From positions 43,392-107,391 of the forward strand of contig DAOOOW010000001.1 of the NCBI GenBank assembly GCA_035387885.1: a DNA stretch of 64,000 bases. The letters are read 5' to 3'. This stretch comes from a bacterium. GTDB lineage: Bacteria > Patescibacteriota > Patescibacteriia > UBA2196. The notes below the pieces were generated by a model that did no database searches, was not told the DNA's origin, and saw nothing but the letters and a program-made list of their open reading frames with translations. Both the position numbers and the translations under genes were made by a program. Below, piece after piece: positions 381 to 62,360 of this stretch; the stretch's first letter is position 1; each line of letters begins with the position of its first letter.

Positions 381-1137
381 CAACTTTGTTACTATTTCTT
401 TTTGAGAAACGGACAAATATTTCTATTTATCTCTCTAATTCGCATTAGAGTTCGGACTATATCTTCCGCGCCTCCTCGGCGGGTCTAGCGTATAGTCTCT
501 GAGGATTTTAAAGATATAAATCTTGTTTTTTCGTTTTACGATACTTACCATTAACATTCATTTTATAAGCCAAATTAATAATTTTTTTAATTCCTGCTCT
601 ATTTGAATGAGCCCCACTTTGCATTAAAAAAACTATTTGCTTAAAAATTGTAAATGACTTTTGTTTGTCAGAAATAAAATTATATTTTTCAAAAAAAGGT
701 ATAATTTTATCAATTAAATCATCTCTATTTCTAACAACAAAAACATATGTATCGTCTTTCTTATTTTTAACATGGTTTTGTTTTAAATATCCGCAATCAA
801 AATATTTCTTTATAGTTTCCAAAATTTCTAATCGTAAATAACTTTGATTAATATGAAATTCTGGAATTACTTTTATTCCCTGTTTCATTTGCGGATCCTT
901 ATAGAAAGCGACATGAAAAGTTCCTTCACCTTCAGTAAAACCAACAATATACCATGGATTTATATGCTTTAATCTTTCCTGCTGATTGTCTGCGCTCAAC
1001 ACATTGTCACTATGTTTTATATTTTTCATCTATTTATTATAACATAGTAGTGTGAGATACTTCAACTCCTGTTCCTAAAAGGAGTTGGCCAGATTTTCCA
1101 GCATTTAGCTAGATTTATAGACAGCATGGATACTCCT
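381..1137 (-). mobile_element. Group I intron interrupting 23S rRNA, encoding a LAGLIDADG homing endonuclease
   Basis: 23S collinearity breaks after ...GAGACAGT (1138) and resumes at TTGGTCTCC (380). The minus-strand base before the 3' exon is G, consistent with the terminal guanosine of group I introns. The insertion point is near the E. coli 2593 region. Confidence 0.7.
508..1029 (-). CDS. LAGLIDADG homing endonuclease (intron-encoded, single-motif)
   Basis: Contains a LAGLIDADG-type motif (WYIVGFTEGEGTF). The ORF lies wholly inside the 23S intron. Confidence 0.85.
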   Translation of the reverse strand: MKNIKHSDNVLSADNQQERLKHINPWYIVGFTEGEGTFHVAFYKDPQMKQGIKVIPEFHINQSYLRLEILETIKKYFDCGYLKQNHVKNKKDDTYVFVVRNRDDLIDKIIPFFEKYNFISDKQKSFTIFKQIVFLMQSGAHSNRAGIKKIINLAYKMNVNGKYRKTKKQDLYL

Positions 1138-1171
1138 ACTGTCTCACGACGTTTTGAACCCAGCTCGCGTA

Positions 1172-1205
<34 letters not shown>

Positions 1206-1212
1206 GCTTCTA

Positions 1213-1248
<36 letters not shown>

Positions 1249-1475
1249 GAACTCCGCCGTCGCTATGGACGCTTGGGCGGAACTAGCCTGTTATCCCCGG
1301 AGTAGCTTTTATTCAATGATCTTTCAGCCACCTATATGGCATGATCGGTTCACTAACTTATGCTTTCGCAACTGCTCGTCTTGTTGGACTTGCAGTAAAG
1401 CAGGCTTAAGGGTTTGCCCTATCAATCCCGTTTCCATCGGGATCTAGCCTACCTTTGTAAATGCCTCCGTTACTT

Positions 1476-1507
<32 letters not shown>

Positions 1508-2889
1508 ACCAGATAATGTCCCCCTATAGGGGTTAGACTTACTAAATAACAAGGGTGGTATCTCACTATTGTCCCGATTGCTCGGGGCTCCCACCTATGC
1601 TGAACATGTTAATCAATAAATCAATATCAAGTTGTAGTAAAGCTTCACGGGGTCTTTTCGTCTAACTGTGAGAAGCCAGCATCTTTACTGGCATTGCAAT
1701 TTCACCGAGTCCCTTTTTAAGACAGTTTTCAGACCGTTATGCCATTCGTGCAGGACGGAACTTACCCGTCAAGGAATTTCGCTACCTTAGGACGATTATA
1801 GTTATCGCCGGCGTTCATCCGCGCTTCGGATCAGAGCTAGTCTCGATAAATCGATTTTCACCCCTCACGTTAACGTTCGGACACTGGCCAGGCATCAGCC
1901 CCTATACGTAGTCTTGCGACTTAGCAGGGACCTGTGTTTTTGGTAAACAGTCGCCTGAAACACGTTGGTTGCACCCCACATTGCTGTGGGGAGAGCTTAT
2001 CCCGAAGTTACGCTCGTTTTTTTGCCGAGTTCCTTAAAAAAGGGTTCTCTCGTTCACCTTAGTATACTCAACCCGCCTACCTGTGTCGGTTTACGGTACG
2101 GTTACTTTAATTCATGACTCTTGGTTTTTCTTGGCATTCAATCACATGAATTCGATCCAGCCGGAGCTTTCACTTCTACCAGCCGCGCCTCGTTAGACTC
2201 GGGCGGAAATCTCAAATTCCAAATCCTAAATTCCAAATAAATATCAAATTTAAAAAATCAAATTATAAATTATTTTAAAATTTAAAAATTTAATCATTAA
2301 AAATTATTTGGAAATTGAAAATTGAAAATTGGAAATTCCGTGCCGAATGCAATGAGGCACGGCCGGAACGTCATAGCCATAGGACGCTCATTCACTTGAA
2401 TACGTCGCCAAAAAGATAAAATTAAAGTAGGACAGGAATATTAACCTGTTCTTCCATCTTGTGTGACCCTTGGGCCATACAATTAGGATCGCCTAACCCT
2501 GGGATGACAGTCATTGCCCAGGAAACCTGAGGCTTTCGGTGGGCAGGATTCTCACCTGCCTTTTTGTTACTCATGCCAACATTCTTACTTCTGCTTCCTC
2601 CACACTCCCTCGCGGGATATGCTTCGCAGGTTAACAGAATACTCCTCTACCACATCACTGCTACGCAGTGGAAATCCGAAATCACAAATTCTAAATCCGA
2701 AACAATATCTAAATTCAAAAAAATAAAATATTAAAATTTTAAATTTAAATTTTTTAAATTTGTTTCGAATTTCGATATTCGAATTTCGTGCTTCCATTGC
2801 GAAGCAATGACATCCTCATCTTCGGTATTATATTTAGCCCCGAACATTTTTGGCGCATCTTCTCTTGACCAGTGAGCTATTACGCTATC

Positions 2890-2921
<32 letters not shown>

Positions 2922-3505
2922 TGGTTGTATGAGAAAAAACACCACCTTTAACACTTAATATAAATTTAGGGACCTTAGATAGAGATCTGGGCTGTTTCCC
3001 TTTTGACAATGAAGCTTAGCCCCCACTGTCTGACTACTGGAAATTTTAACCGGTATTCGGAGTTTGGTTGGGGAGGATATCTTGCGACTCCAGCCCCATC
3101 CAGTGCTCTACCCCCGGTTAAATATTAACCAGCGCTAGCCCTGAAGCTATTTCGAGGAGAACCAGCTATTACCAGGTTCGATTGGAATTTCACCCCTAAC
3201 CACAGCTCATCCCCGCGTGTTGTACGGCGCGTGAGTTCGGACCTCCTCCCACATTTCTGAGGGACTCATCCTGGCCATGGCTAGATCACCTGGTTTCGGG
3301 TCATACACATGCTGCCTTAAACGCCCATTTAAGACTTGGTTTCCCTATGCCTTAATCCGATTAACGGACTTAGACAAGCAACATAAGTATACTCGTTGGC
3401 TCATTCTTCAATAGGCACACCATTGTCCCGATTACTCGAGACTTTGATTCTTTGAAAACGTATGGTTTCAGAAACTATTTCATCCCCCTCACCGGGGTGC
3501 TTTTA

Positions 3506-3536
<31 letters not shown>

Positions 3537-4710
3537 ATCTTCGAAAGTATTTAGCCTTGGGGCATAGTCGCCCCTGCTTCAAACAGGATTTCACGTGTCC
3601 TGCCCTACTTAAGGTTCGTCATAATGAGATCTTTTCTTTTTGTATACTGGACTATCACCATCTGTGGTATTAGCTTTCCAGCTAATTTCTACTAAGAAAA
3701 AATTTTGTAACTCATTTTTTGTGTTATAAGCCACAAAAACTGACGCCTTGCAACACCTTAAACAGCAACGGCTCATACCTTTAAATACCGCTGCTCCGCA
3801 TCGGCATGCTAATTAATACAAATTATTTACGAATTATACAAATATAAATATTCGTAATAATTCGCAATTTTAATTCGCAAAATTCGCAGTCCAATGCGAA
3901 GCATTGGTAAAACACTGTTTAGGTTTAGGCTTTTCCCGGTTCGTTCGCCACTACTACGGGAATCATTATTATTTTATTTTCCTCCGCTTACTGAGATGTT
4001 TCACTTCAGCGGGTAAGCATCCCTCACTAACTTTTTGCTCCTTTAAAATTTAATCTTAAACATTTTTTGTTCATAAATATTTTATTTTTTATTTACAAAC
4101 ATTTTTATAAAAAAGATAAAATAATAAGCAGAAAGTTAGTGAGGGATAACGCAGGTTTACTACGTTGAGTTTCCTCATTCGGAAATCTCCGGATCAAAGT
4201 TTGCTTGGGAACTCCCCGGAGCTTATCGCACCCTGCCACGTCCTTCATCGCCTTTCGAAGTCTAGGCATCCACCATACGCCATAGTTCTAATATCCTTTT
4301 AAAAATCTTTTATTTTAAAATTTGAAACGTATTTATTACGTGCCTGCCCCGCATTTGCGGGGTAAAAAGATCACGCTTGTCCCGCGACTGCGGGATAAAT
4401 TCGCTTCGTTTTTACTCGATGTACATCCAGCACTAACTTTTTGCCAGTTTAAATATTTATTCTTAAAAACATTATTTAAAAAAATAATTTCTATTTTCCA
4501 TTAAACAAGGTCAATTAAAAAATAAATAAGCAAAAAGTTAGTGCTGGATAAATTGCTTTTACTTTATATATTGATTTCTCCTTTAATAAATTTTTAAAGT
4601 CCTATCCTTATCAACTAATTTCCATCTATTATATATAAACAAAAATTAACTGATAAATTTTTTCAAAATATTCGCATTTAATTCGCAATTTCAATTCGCA
4701 CAATTCGCAT

Positions 4711-4743: not shown

Positions 4744-4887
4744 AAAAACAAAGGTACACAAAATTAACCGCTTAAAGAAAATAAGATTAGTTTTTTAGTA
4801 TACATAAATAAATATAGTTGTGGATAAGTAAATTTTTATCTTTACCTATTATAGGATATAAAAAAAAGCTTGTCAAATGTTTAAAAG

Positions 4888-15888: not shown

Positions 15889-16812
15889 ATGAAAAAGAGC
15901 GAAACTTTTATTCCGGGCGCCAACCAAATCAGTATTGGGTATGTAGCACTGTTCCCCGGAAAACTGACCCAGCTGAGAGACGACATCCCATGGGTAAAAA
16001 CCCGTGTGCTCAACGGCAATTTGCCGGGGACGGAAAAGGACTCGGGGATAACCGTGGTGCCGTGTCATTTGGATCACGGCAAAATCACCTTACCCGAGGA
16101 CATTGCCAACCACGCGTGTATCCAAAGATGGGAACGCGATGGTGTGACCCATCAAGAGGGCGGTCCGCTTCAACCGGTTTATGCCCTCAAGTCTGTTGAA
16201 AGACGCGGAAAGGATGAAAATGGCAATGGATTCGTCATCCTGCCGTGTCTTACAGATGGCAGTGCCCCCTATGGGTCATTTGTACCCGCCCAAGACGGCC
16301 AAAAAGATTACATCGTCGCCTATGTCAACAACATTGTGGACGGCATAACGGTTATGCTGATGGTGGAAGCCATTGAAAACGGAGTCTATCACGCCCACAT
16401 CTCGGTCGCGAATTTTACAGTCAATAGTATGACCGGGGAAGTTTTGCGTGAGAACGCCATCAACAGAGCGTTTGTGGTCGAAGGACGTCCGGATACTCTG
16501 CCGAATTTTTCTTCAAGAGTCGGCGAAAAGTATCTCGAAGCCTTTAAGGCGGCTATGGCCATTTTCAAAAGTATGGCGAAAGGCGAACGCCAGTGCGCCA
16601 TGTGGGTCAAGGACATTACCCGTCCGATCACTGCCCCCGTCCCCGATGCACCGTCTCCGGTTGAAGAACCGGCATCGGCGCCCGCTCCGGAAGCGAAAAG
16701 CAAAGGTGGCAAAGGCAAAAAGGCTGCCAAACAGCCCACGGCCGATGTCACGACCAATGGTGGCAACGGCCACACCGACACTGTGCCAGCCCCCAACGAA
16801 GTTGTTGCCTAG
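15889..16812 (+). CDS. Hypothetical protein, strongly GC-rich (about 50% GC against about 30% background), Pro/Ala/Lys-rich C-terminal tail
   Basis: GGAGGAGG RBS before ATG 15889. No family recognised. Confidence 0.6.
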   Translation: MKKSETFIPGANQISIGYVALFPGKLTQLRDDIPWVKTRVLNGNLPGTEKDSGITVVPCHLDHGKITLPEDIANHACIQRWERDGVTHQEGGPLQPVYALKSVERRGKDENGNGFVILPCLTDGSAPYGSFVPAQDGQKDYIVAYVNNIVDGITVMLMVEAIENGVYHAHISVANFTVNSMTGEVLRENAINRAFVVEGRPDTLPNFSSRVGEKYLEAFKAAMAIFKSMAKGERQCAMWVKDITRPITAPVPDAPSPVEEPASAPAPEAKSKGGKGKKAAKQPTADVTTNGGNGHTDTVPAPNEVVA

Positions 16813-16831
16813 TCCATCAGGACAAGGCAGA

Positions 16832-16863
16832 AGCTCGTCTCTTAGGAGACGGGCTTTTTTATT
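16832..16863 (+). terminator. Rho-independent terminator
   Basis: AGCTCGTCTCTTAGGAGACGGGCT followed by TTTTTTATTTT. Confidence 0.6.
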
Positions 16864-16963
16864 TTTATTTTTTTAAAACTTTTATTTAATCCACAACTTG
16901 ACCGTTCATAATAATTCTGATAGCCTATTAAAATAAAATATAAAATATTTGGAGGAAAAAATA

Positions 16964-18391: not shown

Positions 18392-18552
18392 AAGATGATC
18401 ATAAAAAAATCTGCCAGTAAAAGTAAAGGTATTTTGTAGGTCCGTGGGTTTCGCGGTGTCCCTAAAGGGACACATCACTCAACCCGTTGTGGCTATAAAA
18501 ACTAAAGCAGTTTAGTTTTTATTTAACGCCACAACTCCTACCGAGGGCAAAG
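18392..18552 (+). repeat. tRNA-adjacent repeat element with a GCAG-loop hairpin, ending in a duplicate of the tRNA-Arg 3' end (CTCCTACCGAGGGCAAAG)
   Basis: Repeat of GTAGGTCCG and of the tRNA 3' end. Hairpin ATAAAAACTAAA-GCAG-TTTAGTTTTTAT is homologous to copies at 52565 and 26290. Confidence 0.5.
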
Positions 18553-26099: not shown

Positions 26100-26340
26100 T
26101 TATTTTTAACATTACCCTCGGTAGGAGTTGCGGCGTTAAACCCCGCAAAATGCGGGGTAGTCACAAAGGGTTGAGCTTTATGCCGACAGGCATAGCGAAA
26201 CCTTCGAACCTTTATAAATAGCTTAGAAGGCTACTGCACTTGGGTTTGTTGATTCCTTCGGCATAACAACAAACCCGTTCTCGCACCAAAGCACTTAAAG
26301 CAGTTTAAGTGCTTTGGTCAGCTCGAACTCCATTGTGCTA
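26100..26340. repeat. MITE-like repeat element with imperfect terminal inverted repeats and an internal GCAG-loop hairpin
   Basis: Left end CCCTCGGTAGGAGTTGCGGCGTT is the reverse complement of the AACGCCACAACTCCTACCGAGGG tRNA-3'-like motif. Contains a TCT anticodon-arm-like segment and a CCCCGCAAAATGCGGGG hairpin. Confidence 0.45.
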
Positions 26341-26526
26341 CAGGTCAGCAAGAAATAAAATTTATAAAAACCAGTTTTATTCTATCCTATTTCTCCTAAT
26401 CTTGCAAGATTTTAAAACTTATGTTAATATAAAAATATTATTTTATAATTATTATTAATGACGTTTTTCTTGGCTTAAGGTCAAGTCTAACACACCTAAA
26501 GCTCGGATAAACGCCAAATTAAAACT

Positions 26527-32680: not shown

Positions 32681-33670
32681 CTATTGCCCACCGCAATAGT
32701 CCGACACACTTGCATGATAATGTGGATTAACGTCTTTTCTGTTGGTTTCATCTCTAAAGGTACATCCTGCTTTTTCTACCAACTGTTTCAAAAGAGCGGC
32801 TTGATCTGCAGATTGAAAATATTGGCTCCTAATATCTACCGCATATGACTGTGGTGGTGTAGTTGGCGTAGAGCCACCATAGTGACATGAATTTTTAGCA
32901 TGTGCACATTTTGGATCAGTCCAAGCTGCACCACTACAATTTTCTATCCCAGCAGAATCACTAATAGAAGTGATATAAATATCTGAGGATTTTAAAACCA
33001 TACCACCGGCGCCAGCATCTAGAGTATCTTTCATACAGGTAAGCGCCCTTTGGAGTGCGGGAGAAACATCCTTTGCCTGATCATGCCTTCCGTTAGGAAA
33101 TGGATTAACACCTCCTGAATAATCTGTAACTGCTCTTGTGCACGAAGCTATGGCAGAAACAGGTAACAAAACTGCAGTACTCGTTTCCCACCCCCCGCCA
33201 TTACCAGAATTGGTAACTTCTACATCTCTCCAAATAATATCGCCTGCGGTTGGTTTTTTCTCACAAGTAAATGTTTGCCATGATTGTTTAAAAACGGTCG
33301 ACACACCTTTACCAGTTTGTTTGCCGTCTGTCAAAGTATAGATTAAATAATTCACTCCAGCCCAAGCAATATAGATAACAAACATGCCAATTACTGCATT
33401 AATCATAATTTTGGTGGCACTAGATATTTTAGCAGAATTACCTTTACTAGTAATTAAAGTCAAGCCAGCATATAAGAACATAAGCAAGGCGGCCACTCCA
33501 GAAAGACCAATAATATAATTGGCAATTTTGGTAACCAAATTTAAGGCATCACAAAAACCGCAATTACCTGTGGCATAACAGTCCATTACCAAACTGGCCC
33601 CTTGAGCTATAAAGGGAATTAACAAAATGCTTAAAGAAAAAATTAAAATTTTAGATTTATTTTTCAACAT
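32681..33670 (-). CDS. Large pilin-like protein: signal peptide, VirB2/TrbC-like two-TM core, and a Cys-containing C-terminal domain of about 200 aa
   Basis: Core LMFLYAGLTLITSKGNSAKISSATKIMINAVIGMFVIYIAWAG is paralogous to the 11.9-14.2 kb cluster. Adjacent to pilT. Confidence 0.55.
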   Translation of the reverse strand: MLKNKSKILIFSLSILLIPFIAQGASLVMDCYATGNCGFCDALNLVTKIANYIIGLSGVAALLMFLYAGLTLITSKGNSAKISSATKIMINAVIGMFVIYIAWAGVNYLIYTLTDGKQTGKGVSTVFKQSWQTFTCEKKPTAGDIIWRDVEVTNSGNGGGWETSTAVLLPVSAIASCTRAVTDYSGGVNPFPNGRHDQAKDVSPALQRALTCMKDTLDAGAGGMVLKSSDIYITSISDSAGIENCSGAAWTDPKCAHAKNSCHYGGSTPTTPPQSYAVDIRSQYFQSADQAALLKQLVEKAGCTFRDETNRKDVNPHYHASVSDYCGGQ

Positions 33671-37751: not shown

Positions 37752-38008
37752 AACCCATGTTTGTCATCCCGACCGCAGTCCCGAGGATACGGGACGTAGT
37801 GGAGGGATCTATATTTTTATTAATTTTAGATTCCCTGCCTACCGGACAGGCAGGCTCCATTCCTAACGACTAAAAAAGCCAGTCGGAATGACAAAAAAAT
37901 ATTTTTTAAAAAAACAGAGCGGAAATTTGTCTCCGCTCCAATATATTTCTCTATCACTTGAACCATATTTCTATTCCAATAAGGCCTAACAAAAATCTTT
38001 CTGATTTT

Positions 38009-38316: not shown

Positions 38317-39141
38317 ATGAACCAAACTACTGCAGAAAATTTAATGAAAATTACCCAAGAATCCTATCAAAAAATTGCGTCTAGTTTTTCTGAAACCAGA
38401 AATTTTTCTTGGGTAGAAATTGATTTAGCCATTGAAAAATATTTGAAAAATAATTGCAAAATTTTAGATTTAGGTTGCGGTAATGGACGTCTGTTATTAT
38501 CTCTAAAAAAATATTTAGAAAATTTTGATTATACTGGTGTGGATAGTTGCCTAGAGTTAATTAAAAAAGCACAATTATCTTTTGCTTCATCGCAATTATC
38601 ACCTTTGTCATTCCCGCGAAAGCGGGAATCCAGAAACATTGCTTTTGAGCGTGGTGATATTTTAAACTTAACTAACTTTGCAGATAATTCCTTTGATTGT
38701 GTCTTTATGATCGCTAGTTTTAACCATGTTGCCAGTGTTGAACTACGCGAAAAATTATTATTAGATGTTAAAAGAGTCTTAAAACCAAATGGATTTTTAA
38801 TTATGACCAACTGGAATTTGTGGAATGTGTATAACAAAAAATCAGTCTGGTCTTATATACTGTCATCCCGAGTGGAGTTCCAACGAAGTCTGGGCGGAAC
38901 CGAGGGATCTCATATTTTTTCTGGATTCCCGATTAGATCGGGAATGACAATAAAAGATGTTCTCACTTTCTGGCAAAATCAATCCCCTATTTATTATCAC
39001 GCCTTCACCTTACGAGAATTAAAAAAACTTTTGCCAAAAACAAATTTTAAAATTTTAGCCAATTATTATGTTAAGGACGGTCAAAAATCTTTTTGGTTTA
39101 ATGGTAAAAATATTTTAACTATTGGCCAAAAAATAATATAA
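38317..39141 (+). CDS. Class I SAM-dependent methyltransferase carrying two in-frame palindromic repeat insertions
   Basis: Motif I ILDLGCGNGRLL. Inserted segments at about 38601-38640 (GTCATTCCCGCGAAAGCGGGAATCC) and about 38864-38960 (GTCATCCCGAG...GGATTCCCGATTAGATCGGGAATGAC) are translated in-frame. Confidence 0.8.
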   Translation: MNQTTAENLMKITQESYQKIASSFSETRNFSWVEIDLAIEKYLKNNCKILDLGCGNGRLLLSLKKYLENFDYTGVDSCLELIKKAQLSFASSQLSPLSFPRKRESRNIAFERGDILNLTNFADNSFDCVFMIASFNHVASVELREKLLLDVKRVLKPNGFLIMTNWNLWNVYNKKSVWSYILSSRVEFQRSLGGTEGSHIFSGFPIRSGMTIKDVLTFWQNQSPIYYHAFTLRELKKLLPKTNFKILANYYVKDGQKSFWFNGKNILTIGQKII

Positions 39142-39204
39142 ACTAATTGATTTATTTTACTATAAATAAAAAACCCGCGGCGTAGTTCAACCGCGGGAAT
39201 TTTT

Positions 39205-39531
39205 CTACCAAAGACACTTCTCAGTGTCTTTGGAAGGAGGAACTGCTTCGAGAGGTATGACTACCTCTCGAATCTCTCTGGGGCCTTCAACCCCAGAGGA
39301 GAGTATGTGCAACGCAAGCGAAACGGTTGCGTTGCACATACTTAGTGGTTTAATTACCAAAACTTTTTTTTCTCCGTCACAACTGACGGAGAAAAAATTT
39401 TTTGTCTCCTCCTCTTCTGTCGCGAGGAGGAATATTACAACCTGGGCCACCCACTTGAGGCCCTCAGAGTAAGGGGGCTTGCCGCCCTCCTCTCTGAATC
39501 GAGCAACCATTTCGCGTGCTGCCTGAATCAT
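39205..39531 (-). ncRNA. GC-rich array of eight consecutive, unrelated perfect hairpins (stems 5-13 bp) ending in a terminator. Candidate structured RNA. The nominal 109-aa ORF is probably not a real protein
   Basis: About 52% GC against about 30% background. The hairpins are listed in findings. Preceded by the shared leader element and an RBS-ATG. Confidence 0.35.
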
Positions 39532-39565
39532 GCTATTTCTCCTTTTTTCTCCCACCAGCCCCATG

Positions 39566-39652
39566 CCAGTAGGCTACTGCCTTAAAGTTATCGAGCAAAT
39601 AAGACCAAAAGATTTTATCCGCTCTTAGTTTTTAAGGCATAAGTCTACTGGC
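39566..39652 (-). promoter_or_regulatory. Conserved structured leader/operator, copy 1 (CCAGTAGACTTATGCCTTAA ...45 nt... TTAAGGCAGTAGCCTACTGG)
   Basis: About 90 nt nearly identical to the inverted copy at 61317-61406. Related to 41275-41360. Confidence 0.6.
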
Positions 39653-39821
39653 AAATAAATTTTAAAGGTGCTCTTTTTATTTAAATTAATTATCAAAATT
39701 TTTACTGCTTTATCTAACACTATAATTATCACATTTTTATCAAAAAGTGTCATTTCTGTCGACAAAATTATTAACTTGCTATTTTATTTTGCTTATATTA
39801 TAATAAAAATGAATAAATTTT

Positions 39822-39840
39822 TTGTCGAAATTTTCGACAA
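39822..39840. promoter_or_regulatory. Perfect 19-bp palindrome TTGTCGAAATTTTCGACAA upstream of the TrmB-like gene. A second TGTCGACA lies at about 39757
   Basis: Read directly. Candidate operator. Confidence 0.4.
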
Positions 39841-39862
39841 AAAACCCTAAAAACTAAAATTT

Positions 39863-40606
39863 ATGTTAGATAAAAAACTTATCCACACCCTTATTAAAAT
39901 TGGTTTAAATGAAAAAGAAGCCGAAATCTATCTGTCCTCTTTAGCTTTAGGTCCTAGCACAGTCGCTAAAATTAGCCAATCCTCTCAAATAAAACGCACT
40001 ACTGTGTATTCAGTAATTGAATCTCTAAAAGAAAAAGGGCTAATGTCTATCCAATTAAAAGGTTTCAAACAATTCTATGTGGCTGAAAAACCAGATAAAT
40101 TAGCAGATTTTTTAGAAGAAAGAAAAAAAACCCTTAAAAACGCTCTACCACAATTCGAATCTCTATATCAAATGAAAGGCATAGAAAGCGTTATTAAGCA
40201 TTATGAAGGTCTAAACAACATTAAAAGCTTATACAACAGCGTTTTAGCTGATTTAAAATTTAAAGATGATTATTTAACCATCTCTGATACTAAACGTTGG
40301 CTAGCTCAAGATGAAGAATTTTTTAATGATTTTATTAAAAAAAGAGCTAAACACAGAGCCAGAGTTCGTTTGCTTTTACAAGACAATGAAGTGGCTCAAA
40401 ACTTTAAACAATTTCAAAGAAACTATGGTATTGAAGTCAAAATATTGCCTATGGACACAGAGTTAAACACTAATTTGCTGGTTGTTCCTAAACAACTAAT
40501 TATTCAGCAATTAACCATACCCTATGAAGCTGTGGCTATAGAAAATCAAAATATAATTAATATGGGCAAGCAACTGTTTGAAATTATTTGGTCAACCTGC
40601 AAATAA
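39863..40606 (+). CDS. TrmB-family transcriptional regulator
   Basis: N-terminal wHTH (LNEKEAEIYLSSLALGPSTVAKISQSSQIKRTTVYSVIESLKEKGL). Length 247 aa. Paralog of 41662. Confidence 0.75.
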   Translation: MLDKKLIHTLIKIGLNEKEAEIYLSSLALGPSTVAKISQSSQIKRTTVYSVIESLKEKGLMSIQLKGFKQFYVAEKPDKLADFLEERKKTLKNALPQFESLYQMKGIESVIKHYEGLNNIKSLYNSVLADLKFKDDYLTISDTKRWLAQDEEFFNDFIKKRAKHRARVRLLLQDNEVAQNFKQFQRNYGIEVKILPMDTELNTNLLVVPKQLIIQQLTIPYEAVAIENQNIINMGKQLFEIIWSTCK

Positions 40607-40653
40607 AAAAGCCGAGATGTTGCCACCTCGGCCGTACTGCTGACTCGTCATCA

Positions 40654-41235
40654 TTAGAATGTGTGTTTCAACGCTGCCATGAATAACGGCGTTTTTTTAT
40701 CTAGGTTATAGGTTGCCGACAAAATAATTTTTTCATTACCACAAGGCAAAGAATAATTTATCGTCGGCATATGCGCTGGTTTTTCATCCAGGTAGTGCAA
40801 CACAGAGAAACCTGCACCAAAATTACCAGCTACAACATCCACAGAATGATATGCAAAACAGAAATTCGCCTTCCAAGTCGGTTTCAATACTTCACCAGCC
40901 ATTACACCAAACCAGCTGGTGAACGTTACAAACTTGGCAAAGTTTGGGGTGTAACCGACAAATGGCCCAGCCCAGACCGTTTTATAATAGACCCCAAAGC
41001 TAGGACCTACTGAAATCCCTGAGGGCAGATTTTTTAAAAAAATAAATTGCCCCAAGGTGCTGTTGAACTCGGCCATTAAAAGTATACTTTTTGCCGAATC
41101 AAGAACAGTTACTGCTCCACCCAGGCCAGAGCTAAGAGCGCTTTGGCCAGATGAAACTTTTATGTCAGTGACTTTTTGGGCCATCACCATGGTGGCAACG
41201 GCCAATACCAGCATCGCGATCATCATCTTTTCCAT
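40654..41235 (-). CDS. Secreted beta-barrel-like protein (OmpW/OmpA-like outer-membrane-protein texture) ending in a C-terminal Phe
   Basis: Signal peptide MEKMMIAMLVLAVATMVMAQ. Alternating hydrophobic beta-strand pattern. C-terminal ...LKHTF. Elevated GC. Preceded by leader copy 3. Confidence 0.5.
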   Translation of the reverse strand: MEKMMIAMLVLAVATMVMAQKVTDIKVSSGQSALSSGLGGAVTVLDSAKSILLMAEFNSTLGQFIFLKNLPSGISVGPSFGVYYKTVWAGPFVGYTPNFAKFVTFTSWFGVMAGEVLKPTWKANFCFAYHSVDVVAGNFGAGFSVLHYLDEKPAHMPTINYSLPCGNEKIILSATYNLDKKTPLFMAALKHTF

Positions 41236-41274
41236 AACCACCTCGTATTTTAGTGAATACTCCTGCCGGACTTT

Positions 41275-41360
41275 CCAGCAGAATAGTGCCTTAATTATTG
41301 TCAAACGATCAAAAGCAATCATACTTTGGTCGTTCTTAGTTTTTAAGGCATAAGTCTGCT
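41275..41360 (-). promoter_or_regulatory. Conserved structured leader/operator, copy 3 (compensatory T-to-C change in both arms)
   Basis: Arms CCAGCAGACTTATGCCTTAA / TTAAGGCACTATTCTGCTGG, against CCAGTAG.../...CTACTGG in copies 1 and 2. Confidence 0.5.
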
Positions 41361-41615
41361 GGAAATAAATTTTTAAAGTGCTGTATATCTTTTTATTTGC
41401 CATTCAAAAACTCTTCCTTGTTGTGAGAAGAGTTGAGAGTTATAAATCTAATATCTGGTGCTTTTGAGGAAATTAATCCTCTTGGCACTTTTTCTCTCTT
41501 CTCATTCTCTATTACTAGAATAGCATTTTAAAGGTATTTGTCAATAATTATGCCACATTTAAAAATGTTCTAATGGCTTAAGTTAGGCAATAATACCTTA
41601 TTTAATAAGACATGT

Positions 41616-41632
41616 TGTCAGAATTATTGACA
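41616..41632. promoter_or_regulatory. Palindrome TGTCAGAATTATTGACA upstream of the second TrmB-like gene
   Basis: Read directly. A similar TGTCAATAATTA lies at about 41549. Confidence 0.35.
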
Positions 41633-41661
41633 CATTTAAGAAAATTTGCTATACTTTATAT

Positions 41662-42393
41662 ATGGAAATAGAAGAAAAATTATTAGTTGATTTGGGGCTT
41701 TCCCCAACCGAAAGCAGAGTGTACCTAGCTGTTTTAGAGTTAAATAGCAGTACAGTCTTAAACATTGCCAAAAAAGCAGGCATCAAAAGACCAACCTGCT
41801 ATTTAAATTTGGATAATTTAGTAATCAAAGGCTATGTCACGAGAATTGAAAAACACAGTACCACTTTGTATACAGCAGAAAAACCAAGTTTTATTTTAAA
41901 TAAATATAAGGAAAAAATAGAAAACTTTAAAGATTTACTGCCTTTTTATGAAGCGAAATTTAATCGCGGTCCCAAGCCAAAGATTAGATATTATGAGGGT
42001 AAAGAAGAAATTTGGAATATTTATACAAAAATCATTTTTCCCTCTGAAGAACTGTATTTTTTTGGCACCGACATACAAAAAATAGAGAAAAACTTTCCCA
42101 ACCTGCTTGATTATTGGTTAAAGAAATTTTCTTCTAAAAATAAAAAAATGATGGAAATTGTTTCTTTTAATGAAGCCGGCTTTAAATACATGACCAAATA
42201 TAAAAAAAATCACCTCATAAAAATTATGCCAGCCAATCTGCCGGTTTTTGCTGATTCGGTTATTACAGAAAATAAAATTTTTATTATTTCTCTGAAAAAT
42301 CTTTTTGGGGTTTTGATTGAATCAGAAGACTTGGCCAAGACTTATAAAAATTTTTTCTTACTGGCTTGGCAAGCGGCTAAAAAAATGAAATAA
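41662..42393 (+). CDS. TrmB-family transcriptional regulator (paralog)
   Basis: wHTH LGLSPTESRVYLAVLELNSSTVLNIAKKAGIKRPTCYLNLDNLVIKGYV. Length 243 aa. Confidence 0.75.
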   Translation: MEIEEKLLVDLGLSPTESRVYLAVLELNSSTVLNIAKKAGIKRPTCYLNLDNLVIKGYVTRIEKHSTTLYTAEKPSFILNKYKEKIENFKDLLPFYEAKFNRGPKPKIRYYEGKEEIWNIYTKIIFPSEELYFFGTDIQKIEKNFPNLLDYWLKKFSSKNKKMMEIVSFNEAGFKYMTKYKKNHLIKIMPANLPVFADSVITENKIFIISLKNLFGVLIESEDLAKTYKNFFLLAWQAAKKMK

Positions 42394-42399
42394 ATTTTT

Positions 42400-43060
42400 G
42401 TTCCATATAGAACATTTAAAATAAAGTTTTCCACCAAAAATCTCTATTTAAGGCACTTTTCCACAAATTGTCTACACTAGTGTAGACAATTTTTATTTTA
42501 GCAAAAATAAGCCTTTAAATGTTCCATGTAGAACATTTAAAATAAAGTTTTCCACCAAAATGGCTTTTTTTTACCACTTATACACATTTTGTCTACACAC
42601 GTCTAGACATTTTATTAATTTTCACTCAATCACAACCAGTTTTTACTCTTGTCAGCTAGTTCTTTTTTTTTAAGATAATATTATTTAAAAAAATAAAGTT
42701 TACCCATCGGGGTTTAATTTTATTGTTAAATAATTGCAGTATGATAAACATTTTGTTCCATGTAGAACAATTTTAATTATTTTGGCAGATATTTATTCTA
42801 AATTAGGCATTTTCATAAAAATTGAATTTTTATGAAAAAATGCCTTTTTTTAGTCTTTTTGTTTATTATTAGCCAAAATCACCATTTTTCCAAAAAAAAT
42901 TGAATTTTTATGAAAAAAGAGTGTTTTTTACTTAAATTAGCCATTTTAGTCATTTTTCCAAAAAAATCCATCGTTTGACAAAATTAAATAAATATTTTTT
43001 TATTTAAAAAATGTCTACACAGGTCTAGACATTTTATTTTTTAATATTTTTTATCTAAAA
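42400..43060. repeat. Non-coding cluster of three iteron-like repeat families
   Basis: TGTTCCATGTAGAACATTTAAAATAAAGTTTTCCACCAAAA at 42400, 42522, and partially at about 42753. Palindrome TGTCTACAC..GTCTAGACA at about 42468, 42588 and 43012. AAAATTGAATTTTTATGAAAAAA at 42818 and 42897. Confidence 0.55.
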
Positions 43061-43120
43061 TTTTTTAAACCACCAACAAGTGGTGGTTTAAAATAAAAAA
43101 TAATTATTTATAATCAACTT

Positions 43121-43194
43121 TGGTGGACTTAGGCAGAATTGAACTGCCGTCTCCGCAATGCGAATGCGATGTATTACCACTATACGATAAGCCC
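43121..43194 (-). tRNA. tRNA-Ala (anticodon CGC), CCA encoded
   Basis: Acceptor GGGCTTA, anticodon loop TTCGCAT, T-loop TTCAATT, 3' ACCA. Confidence 0.75.
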
Positions 43195-43232
43195 GGTTTA
43201 ATAAAATTGTTGGAAAATTAACTCTAAAAAAT

Positions 43233-43304
43233 TGTCCTCGGAGGGAATCGAACCCCCATCTGTCCCTTAGGACGGGATTATTCTATCCATTGAACTACAA
43301 GGAC
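43233..43304 (-). tRNA. tRNA-Arg (anticodon CCT)
   Basis: Acceptor GTCCTTG/CGAGGAC, anticodon loop GTCCTAA, T-loop TTCGATT. Confidence 0.65.
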
Positions 43305-46988: not shown

Positions 46989-48359
46989 ATGAATAATGAG
47001 CAACTTTGGCAAGCTATTTTAGGAGAACTAGAAGTTTCTATTTCTAAAGCTAACTTTACTACTTGGTTTAAAAATACTTTTGTTTTAGAACAAGAAGATA
47101 ATAAGCTTATTGTAGCCGTACCCAACACATTTACCAAAACTTGGCTAGAAAATAAATACAATAAAGCTATTATTTCGGCTCTTAAAAAAATAACCCAAAA
47201 CAAACTCAATGAAATATATTATAAAGTTTCTTTGGTGCCTGAAAAAACCACTAATTCCGTGCATAATTTAAAAAATATTATTAAAAATGATTTAGAATTA
47301 AAAAATACCGAAAACCTTAAAACCGATAATCATGGATTAAATCCTAAATATGTGTTTGAAACTTTTATTGTAGGTAAAAGCAACGAACTAGCCTTTGCAG
47401 CTGCTCAAGCAGTGGCTAAAAACCCAGGCAAATCCTATAATCCACTCTACATTTATGGCGGTGTGGGTTTAGGTAAAACTCATTTATTACAAGCTATTGG
47501 TCATGAAATAGTTAAAAAAAATCCGCAAGCCAAACTTTTATATGCAACCAGTGAATATTTTACCAATCAATTCGTTTTTGCTATTCGTTCTAATAAAACC
47601 AAGGAATTTCAAAACAAATTTAGAGATATTGATGTTTTAATTATTGATGATATTCAATTTATTTCCGGCAAAGAACAAACTCAGGAACAATTATTTCATA
47701 CTTTTAACGATTTACATCAAAATAATAAACAAATAATTTTTTCCTCTGATAGAATTCCTAAGGCTATTGCTGGTTTAGAATCAAGATTAGAATCACGTTT
47801 TGAATGGGGTATGATTGTCGATATTGCTGAACCAGACACAGAAACTAAAATTGCTATTATTGAGGCTAAATTAATTGAAAAAGGCTTTTCTTTAGATAAA
47901 AACATTGTTTTATTTTTGGCTACCAATTCCGGTCGCAATGTTAGAGAAATAGAAGGTATTATTAATCGTATTATAGCCCATTGTGATTTAATTAGTCATG
48001 ACAAAGAAGTCACTCTGGAAGACGTTAAAAATATTTTACAGACCATTAATCAACATTTACCTCAAAGTGCTATTACAATCAAAAAAATTATTAAAATTGT
48101 AGCAGAATTTTATGATGTATCATTGGATGATATTCTTAGTGAATCTAGAAAAAAAGAATTAGTTGAACCAAGACAAATTACCATGTATTTAATTAGAGAA
48201 GAAATTGGTTCATCATTTCCCAATATTGGTCAAGAACTTGGCGGTAGAGACCACACCACTGCCATGCACGCTTATGAAAAAGTTAAAAAGTTAGTTTTAG
48301 AAAATGATAAAATTAAACAGGATATTTTTTTACTCAAACAAAAACTTTATAATGATTAA
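46989..48359 (+). CDS. dnaA: Chromosomal replication initiator DnaA
   Basis: AAA+ Walker A GGVGLGKTHL. C-terminal DNA-binding domain (MYLIREE...LGGRDHTT). Confidence 0.95.
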   Translation: MNNEQLWQAILGELEVSISKANFTTWFKNTFVLEQEDNKLIVAVPNTFTKTWLENKYNKAIISALKKITQNKLNEIYYKVSLVPEKTTNSVHNLKNIIKNDLELKNTENLKTDNHGLNPKYVFETFIVGKSNELAFAAAQAVAKNPGKSYNPLYIYGGVGLGKTHLLQAIGHEIVKKNPQAKLLYATSEYFTNQFVFAIRSNKTKEFQNKFRDIDVLIIDDIQFISGKEQTQEQLFHTFNDLHQNNKQIIFSSDRIPKAIAGLESRLESRFEWGMIVDIAEPDTETKIAIIEAKLIEKGFSLDKNIVLFLATNSGRNVREIEGIINRIIAHCDLISHDKEVTLEDVKNILQTINQHLPQSAITIKKIIKIVAEFYDVSLDDILSESRKKELVEPRQITMYLIREEIGSSFPNIGQELGGRDHTTAMHAYEKVKKLVLENDKIKQDIFLLKQKLYND

Positions 48360-52242: not shown

Positions 52243-52539
52243 GCAATTAATTTAGCGAAGAATCTTGGTTGGGATGATTTAAAAAATGAGATTAGAGGCG
52301 AAGTAGATGGTATGATTAATAGATGGACAATAAAAAATAAAGAATAAAATTTATAAAAAATAAACCCCCTGAGAATATCAAGGGGTTTTACAATTAAAGT
52401 AGGGGCACAAAATTTTGTGCCCCTACAAAAAATACTCCGCAGCTACAAGCGTGGGGTTAATTTTAACTTCGTTCACTGTTAGTTAAAAAACTAGATCCCT
52501 CCGCTCGTTCTTACAGTGGGTTTCACAATGCCTGTCGAC

Positions 52540-52760
52540 ATAATGCTTCACCCATTGTGGCTATAAAAATTAAAGCAGTTTAATTTTTATTTAACGCCAC
52601 AACTGGTCGAGATAAACTGCAGGAAAAAATAATGAGCTACCCCGCATCTAAAAGTGCGGGGTTAATTTTAACTTTGTTCGCGGGTGGTTTTGCCGTCATT
52701 CCATTCGGCAAAACCTGGCTCACTTCGTTAAAATTAAAAAGCCCCGAGCAGGCGGAGCTA
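52540..52760. repeat. Cluster of repeat-family copies (GCAG-loop hairpin, CCCCGCA..TGCGGGG hairpin, GTCATTCC element)
   Basis: CTATAAAAATTAAA-GCAG-TTTAATTTTTAT with compensatory changes relative to 18495. GGGGTTAATTTTAACTT occurs twice. Confidence 0.5.
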
Positions 52761-52946
52761 AATACAAGAATTAAGAATAATGAATAAAGAATTATGAATA
52801 AAAAATGAATTAATTTTTTCTACTCGGCTTTAGCCGAGGTTGGTGGTACTTTAGTACAACATTAAAAAGAAAATTATTTATAGTTTAGTGGTAAACTAAA
52901 GTTTACCAAACCCCCACTAAAGTGGGGTAGAAAAAATAAATTAACT

Positions 52947-53963
52947 TTATTTTTCTTTTTCCTTAATAAAATTCCAGATTTCTTTTTTAATTTCTTGGGT
53001 TAATTTTTTATCTTCTTTTAAAGTTTTTTTAGCATTTTCGCGACCAACACCAAGTTTAATGTCTTTGCAAGAAAAAGTGGTGCCAGATTTTTTGACTAGA
53101 CCATAGGTCATACCCAAATCAATAATATCTCCAGAAAGCGAGATGCCTTCATTATACATAATATCAAATTCCGCAGTTTTAAAAGGGGCGGCCACTTTAT
53201 TTTTAACTATTTTGGCTTTTACCCGATTGCCCACAATTTCTTCCCCCATTTTAATTTGAGCGGCACGGCGTAATTCAATACGCACAGAAGAATAAAATTT
53301 TAAAGCCAAGCCACCGGGAGTAGTTTCTGGATTACCAAAGAAAACCCCAATTTTATGTCTAATTTGATTGATAAAAATAACACAGGTTTTAGTTTTGGAA
53401 ACAATAGCAGTGAGTTTTCTTAGAGCTTGACTCATTAATCTGGCTTGCAGAGCCATATGAGTATCACCCATCTCACCCTCAATTTCCGCTTTGGGAGTCA
53501 GGGCAGCCACGGAGTCCACAATAATTACATCAACACTATTTGATCTAACCAAAGTTTCTACAATGTCCAAAGCTTGTTCGCCAGAATCTGGTTGGGAAAA
53601 TAATAACTCATTAATATTAACACCTATTTTTTTAGCATATTCAGGATCTAGGGCGTGTTCAGCATCAACGAAAGCTACAAGGCCACCCATTTTTTGAGTT
53701 TCAGCAGCAATGTGTTGGGCAATGGTGGTTTTACCAGAGGCTTCTGCTCCATAAATTTCAATAATTCTGCCACGAGGCACACCACCAACAACAAGAGCAA
53801 TATCTAAAGACAAACAACCCGTAGGAATTACAGAAACTTCCATGGCTTTAGCTTCACCAAATTTCATAATAGCCCCCTCGCCAAACTTTTCCTTAATTTG
53901 ATCAATGGCTGATTGAGTATTTTCTTGTTTAGTTTCCTTTTCGGTTTTTTGTTCTTCTTTCAT
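52947..53963 (-). CDS. recA: Recombinase RecA
   Basis: Walker [10 protein letters not shown]. RecA L1/L2 regions. Length 338 aa. Confidence 0.95.
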
Positions 53964-60564: not shown

Positions 60565-60759
60565 ATGAAAAATTTAAACTATAATATTATTTTAAAACCA
60601 GAAAAGCAAGGCGGTTTTACTGTGGTTGTGCCATCTTTACCTGGTTGTGTAACATATGGCAGAGATTTAGCAGAAGCCAAGAAAATGGCTAAAGATGCTA
60701 TTAAAGTTTATGTGGCAAGTTTGGTTAAACACAAAGAATGCGCTTTCTGTAAAATTTAA
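60565..60759 (+). CDS. HicB-family antitoxin-like protein (UPF0150), apparently orphan
   Basis: ILKPEKQGGFTVVVPSLPGCVTYGRDLAEAKKMAKDAIKVY matches the HicB N-terminal domain. TATAAT at about 60521. No hicA seen. Confidence 0.65.
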   Translation: MKNLNYNIILKPEKQGGFTVVVPSLPGCVTYGRDLAEAKKMAKDAIKVYVASLVKHKECAFCKI

Positions 60760-61007
60760 TTAAATAGGATTTTATTCGTAGGGACAGGTTTGAAACCTGT
60801 CCTTTTGGTTTGGTTGGGTTTTTATCCTCTCCTTATAAAACAGGTACCTATTTTTGTTGGCTCCAATCTCCTGATTGGAGCCTTAGTGCTTCATTAGTGT
60901 AATTAAAATATAAAAAATATAATAAAGAGGCATTGTGTCTCCAGTCAGGAGACTGGAGACAACCAACAACGGCAAACTTTAATTTGAAAAGGCGGGGACT
61001 AATTACT

Positions 61008-61167: not shown

Positions 61168-61316
61168 GACTGCAGAGAATGAGAGGAGAAAAAAGTCTAG
61201 AAAGAATTAATTCTTTTAAGGCGTTGAAATTAGTTTTTAATTCCCCTGCTCTTCTCTAAGAACGCGGGGTTTTTAAATCGAAAAATATAAAAATAGTACT
61301 TTGATAATAAAAATAT

Positions 61317-61406
61317 TGCCAGTAGACTTATGCCTTAAAAACTAAGAGCGGATAAAATCTTTTGGTCTTATTTGCTCGATAACTTTAAGGCAGTAGCCTA
61401 CTGGCA
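61317..61406 (+). promoter_or_regulatory. Conserved structured leader/operator, copy 2 (inverted duplicate of 39566-39652)
   Basis: About 90 nt near-identical to the reverse complement of copy 1. Precedes the receiver-like ORF. Confidence 0.6.
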
Positions 61407-62004: not shown

Positions 62005-62360
62005 AAATCTCCCTCACTTACGCAAAGCACCGTGTAAGTGAGGGACTACTGCCCTTGCCGCAAAACAGCGCGGCAAGGGCTTTTTATTTTTTTAAAAAAT
62101 ATGTTATGCTTAAGGTATAAAATTGTTAAAATTGATTTTTAGTGATAAAATATAGCTGTAAGAAACTTAATTAAATCATTAACTTCAGCGCATCTATTTT
62201 TTTAAAAGGAAATTCAATAAAGGCTTCTGTGGTAATTAGAAAAAGCAGGGGCTTTTTATTTTTTTTAAATTTGCTATAATTAATTTGAATTATTCTATAA
62301 TCTATGATACATTAAAGTTATCAATTTTGTTAACTTTCGTGTATTATTAATTTTTAGCCT

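Follow-up and report, generated by a model that had tools for sequence, protein, structure and literature searches.

Can a chain of perfect hairpins and a protein be written in the same codons? The question is raised by a GC-rich locus in a 64,000-nucleotide (nt) stretch of chromosomal DNA from a member of the Patescibacteria (candidate phyla radiation [CPR]), referred to here as the window, in which eight back-to-back stem-loops of mutually unrelated sequence (H1 to H8) are found on the minus strand at positions 39174 to 39463. A 109-codon open reading frame (ORF), ORF-A (39205 to 39531, minus strand), runs through seven of them. An earlier reading of the same DNA (the original prediction) regarded the frame as an accident of GC-rich sequence and the hairpins as a novel noncoding RNA, a protein-binding array, or a set of terminator decoys. 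The evidence now favors a protein gene. We consider it very likely that the frame encodes a protein, and probable, with less confidence, that the whole is a small, lineage-restricted, fast-evolving orphan gene with coding palindromes, produced by template switching and retained at the RNA level. As judged from comparison with related loci, coding and structure coexist in ORF-A.

The hairpin array was confirmed, and chance does not account for it. Perfect stems of 7 to 16 base pairs (bp) occur in seven of the eight hairpins, and H1, with 5 bp, is the sole weak one. All eight had been predicted, several with shorter stems than are given here, and H8 gains one G·U pair in addition to its 7 perfect bp. 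The 75 stem pairs of H2 to H8 include zero mismatches and zero G·U pairs. In a census of nonoverlapping perfect stems of at least 7 bp, the 258 nt of the array held 7 and the remaining 63.7 kb held 54, a density of ~27 per kb in the array compared to <1 per kb for the entire window. RNAfold z-scores, a check that had been suggested for the locus, were −11.8 for positions 39170 to 39600 and −10.6 for ORF-A alone, and in a scan of 150-nt segments on both strands of the window the array supplied the four most extreme values. The block is also GC-rich, as predicted (0.49 in ORF-A compared to ~0.31 in adjacent genes), and the stems alone do not account for this, as the nonstem parts of ORF-A are GC-rich too. 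An identical array sequence is present in four independent assemblies, and an assembly artifact was therefore rejected. No Rfam family matched the array at the gathering threshold, the sole matches in the window being 23S rRNA and tRNAs elsewhere; at E ≤ 10 there was only noise locally (best score, ≤24 bits against thresholds of ≥49), and tRNA and tmRNA searches of the locus returned nothing, in agreement with the predicted lack of a known RNA class.

Seven stems of 5 to 16 bp, all but one of them with 8 bp or more, fall within the 109-codon frame, with both arms in frame. H1 (39444 to 39463; all hairpin coordinates refer to the minus strand) reads GGGCC-N10-GGCCC, with a loop of 10 nt. H2 (39407 to 39431; TCCTCCTC-GCGACAGAA-GAGGAGGA; 8 bp, loop of 9 nt) encodes FLLATEEEE, and H3 (39366 to 39397; TTTTTTCTCCGTCA-GTTG-TGACGGAGAAAAAA; 14 bp, loop of 4 nt) encodes NFFSVSCDGEKK. 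H4 (39302 to 39342; AGTATGTGCAACGCAA-CCGTTTCGC-TTGCGTTGCACATACT) is the longest, with 16 bp and a 9-nt loop, and is followed by H5 (39276 to 39298; CTCTGGGG-TTGAAGG-CCCCAGAG; 8 bp, loop of 7 nt). H6 (39247 to 39272; TTCGAGAGGTA-GTCA-TACCTCTCGAA; 11 bp, loop of 4 nt) encodes IREVVIPLE, and H7 (39208 to 39233; CCAAAGACACT-GAGA-AGTGTCTTTGG; 11 bp, loop of 4 nt) spans the final nine codons. H8 (39174 to 39197, or 39168 to 39197 with its six T residues) lies beyond the stop codon and reads CCCGCGG-TTGAACTACG-CCGCGGG; it comprises eight pairs, seven of them G-C and one G·U (T·G in the DNA), followed by TTTTTT. As a GC-rich stem-loop directly before a T-run at the end of the unit, it has the features of an intrinsic (Rho-independent) terminator, and it is homologous to the cargo-gene terminators of related loci L021/L022 and L025 (88% identity over 34 nt with L021).

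Relatives of array elements exist only for H8 and for the leader described below. For the arms of H2 to H7, neither the window nor ~200 kb of related loci yielded a second match, and phage and plasmid collections yielded none. We rejected a repeated element or a set of terminators captured from elsewhere, since the arms are unmatched in the window and related loci and adjacent T-runs occur only at H3 and H8. A spacer-like or foreign origin was rejected in view of the missing phage and plasmid matches; matches of the H6 palindrome to viral contigs were unrelated terminators. The loops (GCGACAGAA, GTTG, CCGTTTCGC, TTGAAGG, GTCA, GAGA, and TTGAACTACG) share no common motif and no repeated GGA, which argues against a sponge RNA of the CsrB/RsmZ type. 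A long-range pairing of the ribosome-binding site (RBS) with CCUCC at 39236 to 39246, seen in the minimum free energy structure, was dropped since it is lost in strain L026. The palindrome centers showed no significant codon phase (4 of 7, or 6 of 12 including L025, pair first with third codon positions).

How strong, then, is the case for a protein? ORF-A opens with ATG (39531 to 39529), closes with TAG (39207 to 39205) 7 nt before the terminator stem, and would specify a 108-amino-acid (aa) orphan whose distal two-thirds consist of perfect palindromes. A Shine-Dalgarno sequence, GGAG (39539 to 39542, minus strand), lies 7 nt before the ATG, as predicted, and its position relative to the leader is the same as in gene C and in the receiver-like gene of L016. 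ORF-A is the sole open frame of the block (GC of.58,.39, and.50 at the three codon positions), and gene callers predict it in four assemblies. In simulations preserving hairpin architecture and composition, a frame of 108 codons was open with P = 0.010. The decisive evidence came from synteny. Orthologs of the neighboring methyltransferase led to related genomes, among them L025, in which the ELP3-like and methyltransferase genes (75 to 78% nucleotide identity), the TrmB gene, the operator/promoter, and the origin-side region are all kept. At the syntenic position, L025 carries a 127-aa ORF that ends just before the homologous terminator and matches ORF-A by BLASTP with 35% identity over 71 aa (E = 9e−7). 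Residues conserved between the two are FSVSxDG, V(I/L)VKP, C, GV, RE, and EVVIPLE, and ~13 of the ~25 use different synonymous codons in L025; FSVS, for example, is written TTC TCC GTC AGT in the window and TTT TCT GTG AGT in L025. Similarity is frame specific: comparison of the coding frames scored 71, whereas the remaining sense frames scored 18 to 46 and antisense frames at most 55, and it remained so (P = 0.02) after removal of the DNA-identical H6 block. In L025, the corresponding frame would be open by chance with P = 0.0004, and 9 to 13 stops interrupt the other frames. Between ORF-A and its counterpart in strain L026, 12 positions differ (7 synonymous and 5 nonsynonymous), giving a ratio of nonsynonymous to synonymous divergence (pN/pS, Nei-Gojobori) of 0.22, with zero differences over the leader, promoter, and TrmB1 (~1,070 nt). 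These results do not support the reading of the frame as a GC accident. The protein diverges much faster than its neighbors, at 35% aa identity with L025 compared to 91.5% for TrmB.

The same comparison shows how the stems have fared. A homolog with conserved residues and synonymous changes, which the original prediction expected of a coding sequence, was found, yet the stems that such changes were expected to destroy have withstood them, and even nonsynonymous ones, by being compensated or rebuilt. The L025 homolog carries five perfect hairpins of its own (16, 11, 7, 10, and 8 bp) and the terminator. H6, H7, and H8 hold the same register there, with no broken pairs. H6 shows one compensatory pair (G-C to A-T), reached by an R-to-Q replacement on one arm and a synonymous Leu codon on the other, and in the counterpart of H7 (CCAAAATA-ATTAAA-TATTTTGG) the outer CCAAA/TTTGG is intact, with both sides altered in three inner pairs. 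Elsewhere, the hairpins have moved: in the window the FSVS codons supply the left arm of H3, whereas in L025 they supply the right arm of the 16-bp hairpin, H4 overlaps a differently centered 7-bp hairpin, H2 and H5 have no counterpart, and an 18-codon insertion in the L025 homolog bears the 11-bp hairpin. Stems are perfect or absent, and they have been gained, lost, or shifted in register between the two species. The perfect stems of both genes are free of G·U pairs (75 bp in H2 to H8 and 52 bp in L025), the only wobble pairs nearby being a flanking T·G at H6 of L025 and the T·G added to H8 by the terminator scan; the leader and gene C, unlike the stems of ORF-A, do contain G·U pairs. The neighboring TrmB gene differs between the window and L025 at 31% of third codon positions, and by our own estimate such divergence would not have left 75 perfect pairs intact by passive persistence. 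The stems of ORF-A would therefore be either young or actively maintained.

We propose that ORF-A is part of a TrmB-regulated accessory cassette in a hypervariable slot near the replication origin of a Patescibacteria chromosome. Transcription would start at a TrmB-controlled promoter and run through the leader, which may have been copied recently from the receiver-like gene at 61.3 kb, to the RBS, ORF-A, and the intrinsic terminator. Intrastrand template switching or arm-to-arm conversion would, at the DNA level, both create the palindromes and preserve their perfection, with the more constrained arm serving as template and overwriting its less constrained neighbor. Such a process would account for the lack of mismatches and G·U pairs, the clustered multinucleotide changes, the hairpins that have swapped sides, and the very fast divergence of the protein. 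Patterns compatible with it, none of them polarized, are T381A/T383G in H4, C220G/A222G together with T195C, and the FSVS arms used on alternate sides; the clusters are drawn from 12 to 16 differences and are also compatible with random clustering. The resulting chain of hairpins would be tolerated and probably retained because it shields the transcript from decay or tunes translation. A benefit at the RNA level is suggested by the concentration of stems in cassette transcripts, the kept register of H6 to H8, and the recurrence of a 3′ hairpin tail in L021, as well as by the G·U pairs and coordinated changes in the N-terminal hairpin and the leader. In strain L026, the imperfect N-terminal hairpin has undergone a synonymous T-to-C change coordinated with a CGA-to-GGG change, and pairing is preserved. 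Genes B and C, which also lie behind the leader, have GC contents of 0.43 to 0.45 compared to 0.31 and structure z-scores of −4.9 and −5.8 compared to 0.15 to −1.9 in ordinary genes, and the L016 operon shows a similar trend.

Several observations weigh against this proposal. Stem perfection is not absolute: in strain L026, two adjacent substitutions (S64R and M65R) break the outer 5 bp of H4, leaving 11 perfect bp. The sample consists of two independent lineages plus near-identical strains, and across the two lineages formal covariation is weak, with 170 of 500 shuffles reaching the observed score. Template switching is read from patterns that lack polarization by an outgroup and is to that extent conjectural. 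The hairpins cluster in cassette genes, and the z-scores of ordinary genes are near 0, a distribution for which a genome-wide mutational process alone is insufficient. On the side of the protein, a search of 5.8 billion proteins matched only ORF-A's own 90% cluster, and a sensitive search of 1.84 billion representatives returned only a spurious match to a repeat protein, although it missed the L025 protein too. That match (P0042, an eightfold repeat resembling ORF-A residues 6 to 29 at ~30 bits each, with an E value inflated by the repeats) was treated as chance. ORF-A has no Pfam, PHROG, or PADLOC domain, and its single-sequence AlphaFold model is mediocre (predicted local distance difference test [pLDDT], 56; predicted template modeling score [pTM], 0.50). 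Finally, conservation of EVVIPLE coincides with a DNA-identical hairpin and could reflect constraint on the nucleotides.

An alternative hypothesis is that the gene is coding but its palindromes have no function, being selfish or neutral by-products that conversion or template switching leaves wherever the protein is weakly constrained. Such a view is favored for nematomorph mitochondria, and the reasoning set out there (PMC6649704) could be carried over to ORF-A: stems that are either perfect or missing and that have been gained, lost, or shifted in register from one species to the other; hairpin insertions in the methyltransferase gene next door; perfect hairpins that are frequent in this genome's intergenic DNA; and a protein that evolves much faster than its neighbors. 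By-products alone would not be expected at ~27 stems per kb in a window with <1 per kb, nor would they be expected to retain the register of H6, H7, and H8 across species, to recur in L021 as a 3′ hairpin tail with a conserved terminator, or to be enriched specifically in transcripts of the cassette and leader group. We regard this hypothesis as unlikely but credible. A further reading would be that cassettes linked to TrmB in this lineage use directed palindrome formation, in which template switching targeted to the structured units near the origin rewrites, with a hairpin as template, the sequence beside conserved cores. We think this doubtful; if true, it would amount to a new mechanism for generating diversity or preserving structure, as opposed to a passive mutational quirk, by which small accessory proteins diversify quickly and always leave a perfectly paired, stable mRNA.

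The noncoding reading fares worse. A structured RNA, purely noncoding or dual-function (a processed array, sponge, or decoy), with the ORF incidental or secondary, would explain the extreme structure and the lack of protein family matches, and also why five consecutive codons in H6 are identical, including third positions, beyond what a protein needs. It would leave unexplained the frame open in both species, the canonical RBS, the synonymous changes at conserved residues with frame-specific similarity, and the low pN/pS; the loops lack a common motif, no Rfam family matches, and the lack of conservation in the hairpin sequences speaks against specific recognition by RNA or protein. We consider it highly improbable. 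Slimmer still are the chances of a role at the DNA level, whether as protein-binding sites, as cruciforms or hairpins that signal recombination or the exchange of cassettes, or as replication signals near oriC. Perfect Watson-Crick palindromes without G·U pairs, a cassette that is exchanged among strains and species and has sharp boundaries at leader and terminator, and a location close to the GC-skew minimum, ~7.5 kb from dnaA, would all suit such a role. Each palindrome is different, however, with no common recognition motif; no recombinase, integrase, or HUH enzyme gene was seen at the locus; the leader lacks attC core sites; and the palindromes do not extend beyond the transcribed unit.

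Inverted repeats are usually thought incompatible with coding sequence, and to our knowledge dense perfect coding palindromes have been described well only in hairworm mitochondria. There, nematomorph genes contain perfect coding palindromes that are translated and are dynamically gained and lost, and template switching or conversion has been proposed to maintain them (PMC6649704). ORF-A resembles these genes in its perfect repeats within coding sequence, its stems that are either perfect or absent, and their gain and loss between relatives, and we regard the nematomorph palindromes as its closest precedent by analogy. It shares with them in-frame repeats, selection on the amino acid sequence (in a small sample), and turnover between relatives. 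The differences are considerable. The nematomorph palindromes lie in conserved respiratory genes and reach 284 bp, while ORF-A is a small orphan accessory gene on a bacterial chromosome whose stems of 7 to 16 bp stand back to back over about two-thirds of the coding sequence. ORF-A is also GC-rich in an AT-rich genome, lies behind a conserved structured leader, and, unlike the translated nematomorph genes, is known here from sequence alone. Template switching is known to create and maintain perfect stems (PMC8794818, PMC5941160), and the model predicts perfect stems, multinucleotide compensatory changes, extension of stems by reverse complements, and conservation of perfect repeats (PMC8794818, PMC5941160, PMC8604942, PMC7202029). 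These predictions all fit the patterns among the window, L026, and L025, where the mechanism would be unpolarized. The studies cover rRNA and microRNA (miRNA) genes, Escherichia coli reporters, proteobacterial inverted repeats, and yeast genes (same four references), and none of them describes a gene whose coding sequence the process dominates.

Other systems match ORF-A in part; the methyltransferase gene next to it offers a point of contact with one of them. Rickettsia palindromic elements are selfish palindromic repeats that occur as in-frame insertions within ORFs; they belong to a multicopy family whose related copies decay with time. The discussion in PMC6649704 mentions them. As with them, hairpin DNA is tolerated in protein genes here, and the methyltransferase insertions described below are exactly of this kind. 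Unlike them, the hairpins of ORF-A are all different, perfect, and unmatched in the window or the fetched loci; membership in a family of Rickettsia palindromic elements, repetitive extragenic palindromic (REP) sequences, or miniature inverted-repeat transposable elements (MITEs) was rejected as the arms of H2 to H7 are single copy in the sequence searched. In 3′ stem-loop, REP, and bacterial interspersed mosaic element (BIME) stabilizers and in 5′ stabilizer hairpins, GC-rich stems block exonucleases, and these elements are untranslated and usually repeated. The ORF-A transcript is similar in that it has a large hairpin on the 5′ side and, on the 3′ side, a chain of hairpins with a terminator, but its hairpins are unique and lie within the coding sequence, and a stabilizing effect is suggested by analogy. 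Polynucleotide phosphorylase (PNPase) is encoded in the window, and RNase J is encoded in related genomes. CsrB/RsmZ and the dual-function RNAIII are likewise chains of simple stem-loops, and RNAIII also contains a small ORF; in contrast to these, the ORF-A unit has no repeated loop motif and no Rfam match, and its ORF spans the whole RNA with conservation at the protein level.

If our reading of ORF-A is correct, it would extend coding palindromes to free bacterial chromosomes, with two-thirds of the codons of a gene in perfect hairpins that last or are remade even as the protein falls to 35% identity beside a 91.5%-identical regulator. The gene would offer a compact system (~330 nt) in which template switching shapes new proteins and RNA structure together. 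It would also imply that screens for GC-rich structured islands in AT-rich genomes can catch real protein genes.

The leader is an imperfect hairpin of 90 nt in the 5′ untranslated region (UTR) of ORF-A (39564 to 39653, minus strand; z = −7 to −10.6). The original prediction had noted that it is shared with a receiver-like gene ~22 kb away, and the copy before that gene, gene C (61317 to 61406, plus strand; 21.7 kb away), proved to be 100% identical. A diverged copy before gene B (41273 to 41364, minus strand) had been missed, and a fourth was found in another species, at L016; searches for the leader gave only chance matches in species-representative genomes and this one related locus among metagenome contigs. 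Across the four copies, 30 pairs are kept, 4 are compensatory, and several are G·U on the sense strand. A conserved box, GCTGGTGGG (39551 to 39559, minus strand), beside the RBS can pair with the 3′ arm of the leader (39564 to 39572). In this alternative helix, 97% of cells are paired over the four copies, with 2 compensatory pairs, compared to 19 to 56% in slid controls; the differences of copy B from copies A (ORF-A) and C are compensatory in the main hairpin and in the alternative helix alike. A switch function may be inferred from this pattern. Copies B, C, and L016 have an additional conserved, promoter-proximal element upstream of the leader (41400 to 41520, minus strand; 61170 to 61290, plus strand; and L016 4100 to 4235, minus strand, respectively), which copy A lacks. 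Its closing helix is formed by GAGAATGAGA and CTCTTCTC; alternatively, the 3′ strand of this helix can fold as a terminator hairpin with a T-run, a layout that resembles an attenuator or riboswitch. Neither the leader nor the upstream element matched an Rfam family at the gathering threshold or at E ≤ 10, and the two would be separate candidates for new cis-regulatory RNAs in Patescibacteria. An integron attC site was rejected for the leader, whose arms (GCCTTAA...TTAAGGC) lack a G before TT and have no RYYYAAC/GTTRRRY cores; there was no integrase among the called genes of the locus, and the copies are dispersed in 5′ UTRs and not arrayed. A MITE was rejected as similarity reaches past the inverted repeat.

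Upstream of the leader, a candidate sigma-70 promoter (39725 to 39753, minus strand; ATGACA-17-(TG)GATAAT) lies within a block 85% identical to the region between TrmB and cargo gene in L025. Between it and TrmB1 is a perfect palindrome, TTTTTTGTCGAAAATTTCGACAAAAAA (39818 to 39844), conserved at L025 7693 to 7719, which we take as a candidate TrmB operator. TrmB1 itself (39863 to 40606, plus strand; Pfam PF01978) is a TrmB-family regulator divergent from ORF-A, as predicted, and is 91.5% identical in aa and 85% identical in nucleotides to the TrmB gene beside the L025 homolog.

With the methyltransferase gene on one flank and the bactofilin/origin side on the other, the slot is a hypervariable insertion site among relatives (window 38317 to 43300 compared with L017 to L032). 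It holds no cassette in L019 and L031, TrmB plus a 74-aa membrane ORF in L017, TrmB plus a gene B homolog in L023, TrmB plus a 182-aa orphan and a receiver-like gene in L021, TrmB plus three small ORFs in L025, and TrmB plus a radical-SAM gene in L030. The L021 orphan, the positional counterpart of ORF-A, carries four unrelated perfect hairpins (9, 7, 10, and 11 bp) in its last 55 codons, followed by the terminator that is 88% identical to H8. No homology was found between ORF-A and the proteins of genes B, C, and L016. Gene B (40654 to 41235, minus strand) is GC-rich and specifies a secreted 193-aa protein; its coding sequence (40620 to 41186) is ~21% different between two strains, mostly at third codon positions, in flanks (leader, TrmB1, and methyltransferase) that differ by 0 to 0.4%, with sharp boundaries. 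This pattern indicates allele replacement. Hypermutation of cargo genes resembling that by diversity-generating retroelements was rejected, since gene B has 52 synonymous compared to 38 nonsynonymous codons and its changes are mostly at third positions. The methyltransferase gene (38317 to 39141) contains two perfect in-frame GC hairpin insertions, at 38610 to 38629 and 38925 to 38945, encoding ..FPRKRES.. and ..FPIRSGM..; in the same loops, orthologs have different hairpin-encoded inserts (e.g., ACLPAGRG) or none. Translated hairpins would therefore be tolerated in this lineage.

The ORF-A locus lies near the GC-skew minimum, which falls at ~44 to 48 kb, with dnaA at ~46989 to 48359. Positions 42399 to 43100 hold direct repeats and palindromes (TGTTCCATATAGAACA and TGTCTACAC..GTGTAGACA) with DnaA-box-like words, conserved in L017 and L025, and this cluster may be part of oriC or of a regulator operator array. 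Upstream of the gene C promoter, three unrelated perfect hairpins (9 to 11 bp) occupy intergenic positions 60780 to 60961; one of them, GGACAGGTTTGAAACCTGTCC, recurs in L021 at 4770 to 4796 and looks REP-type. Just upstream of this cluster is a small ORF (60565 to 60759, plus strand) that, by eye, resembles a HicB-type antitoxin. Positions 62010 to 62080, after gene C, contain a hairpin, TCCCT...AGGGA, followed by CTA, and a second stem, CCCTTGCCGC/GCGGCAAGGG, before a T-run; counterparts occur in L016 (both TCCCT...AGGGA ends) and one in L025, intergenic inside operons, and these hairpins may be processing or stabilizer sites. The 23S rRNA match (1053 to 4296, minus strand) spans 3,244 nt compared to 2,925 nt in the model, implying one or more insertions, which are common in CPR rRNA genes. 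Further structured 150-nt segments (z = −7.8 to −9.3) were found at 26251 to 26400, 16801 to 16950, 52351 to 52950, 32851 to 33000, and 37801 to 37950, some of which adjoin tRNA genes or repeat families (18469 to 18536 with 52537 to 52604, and 52433 to 52484 with 52638 to 52689).

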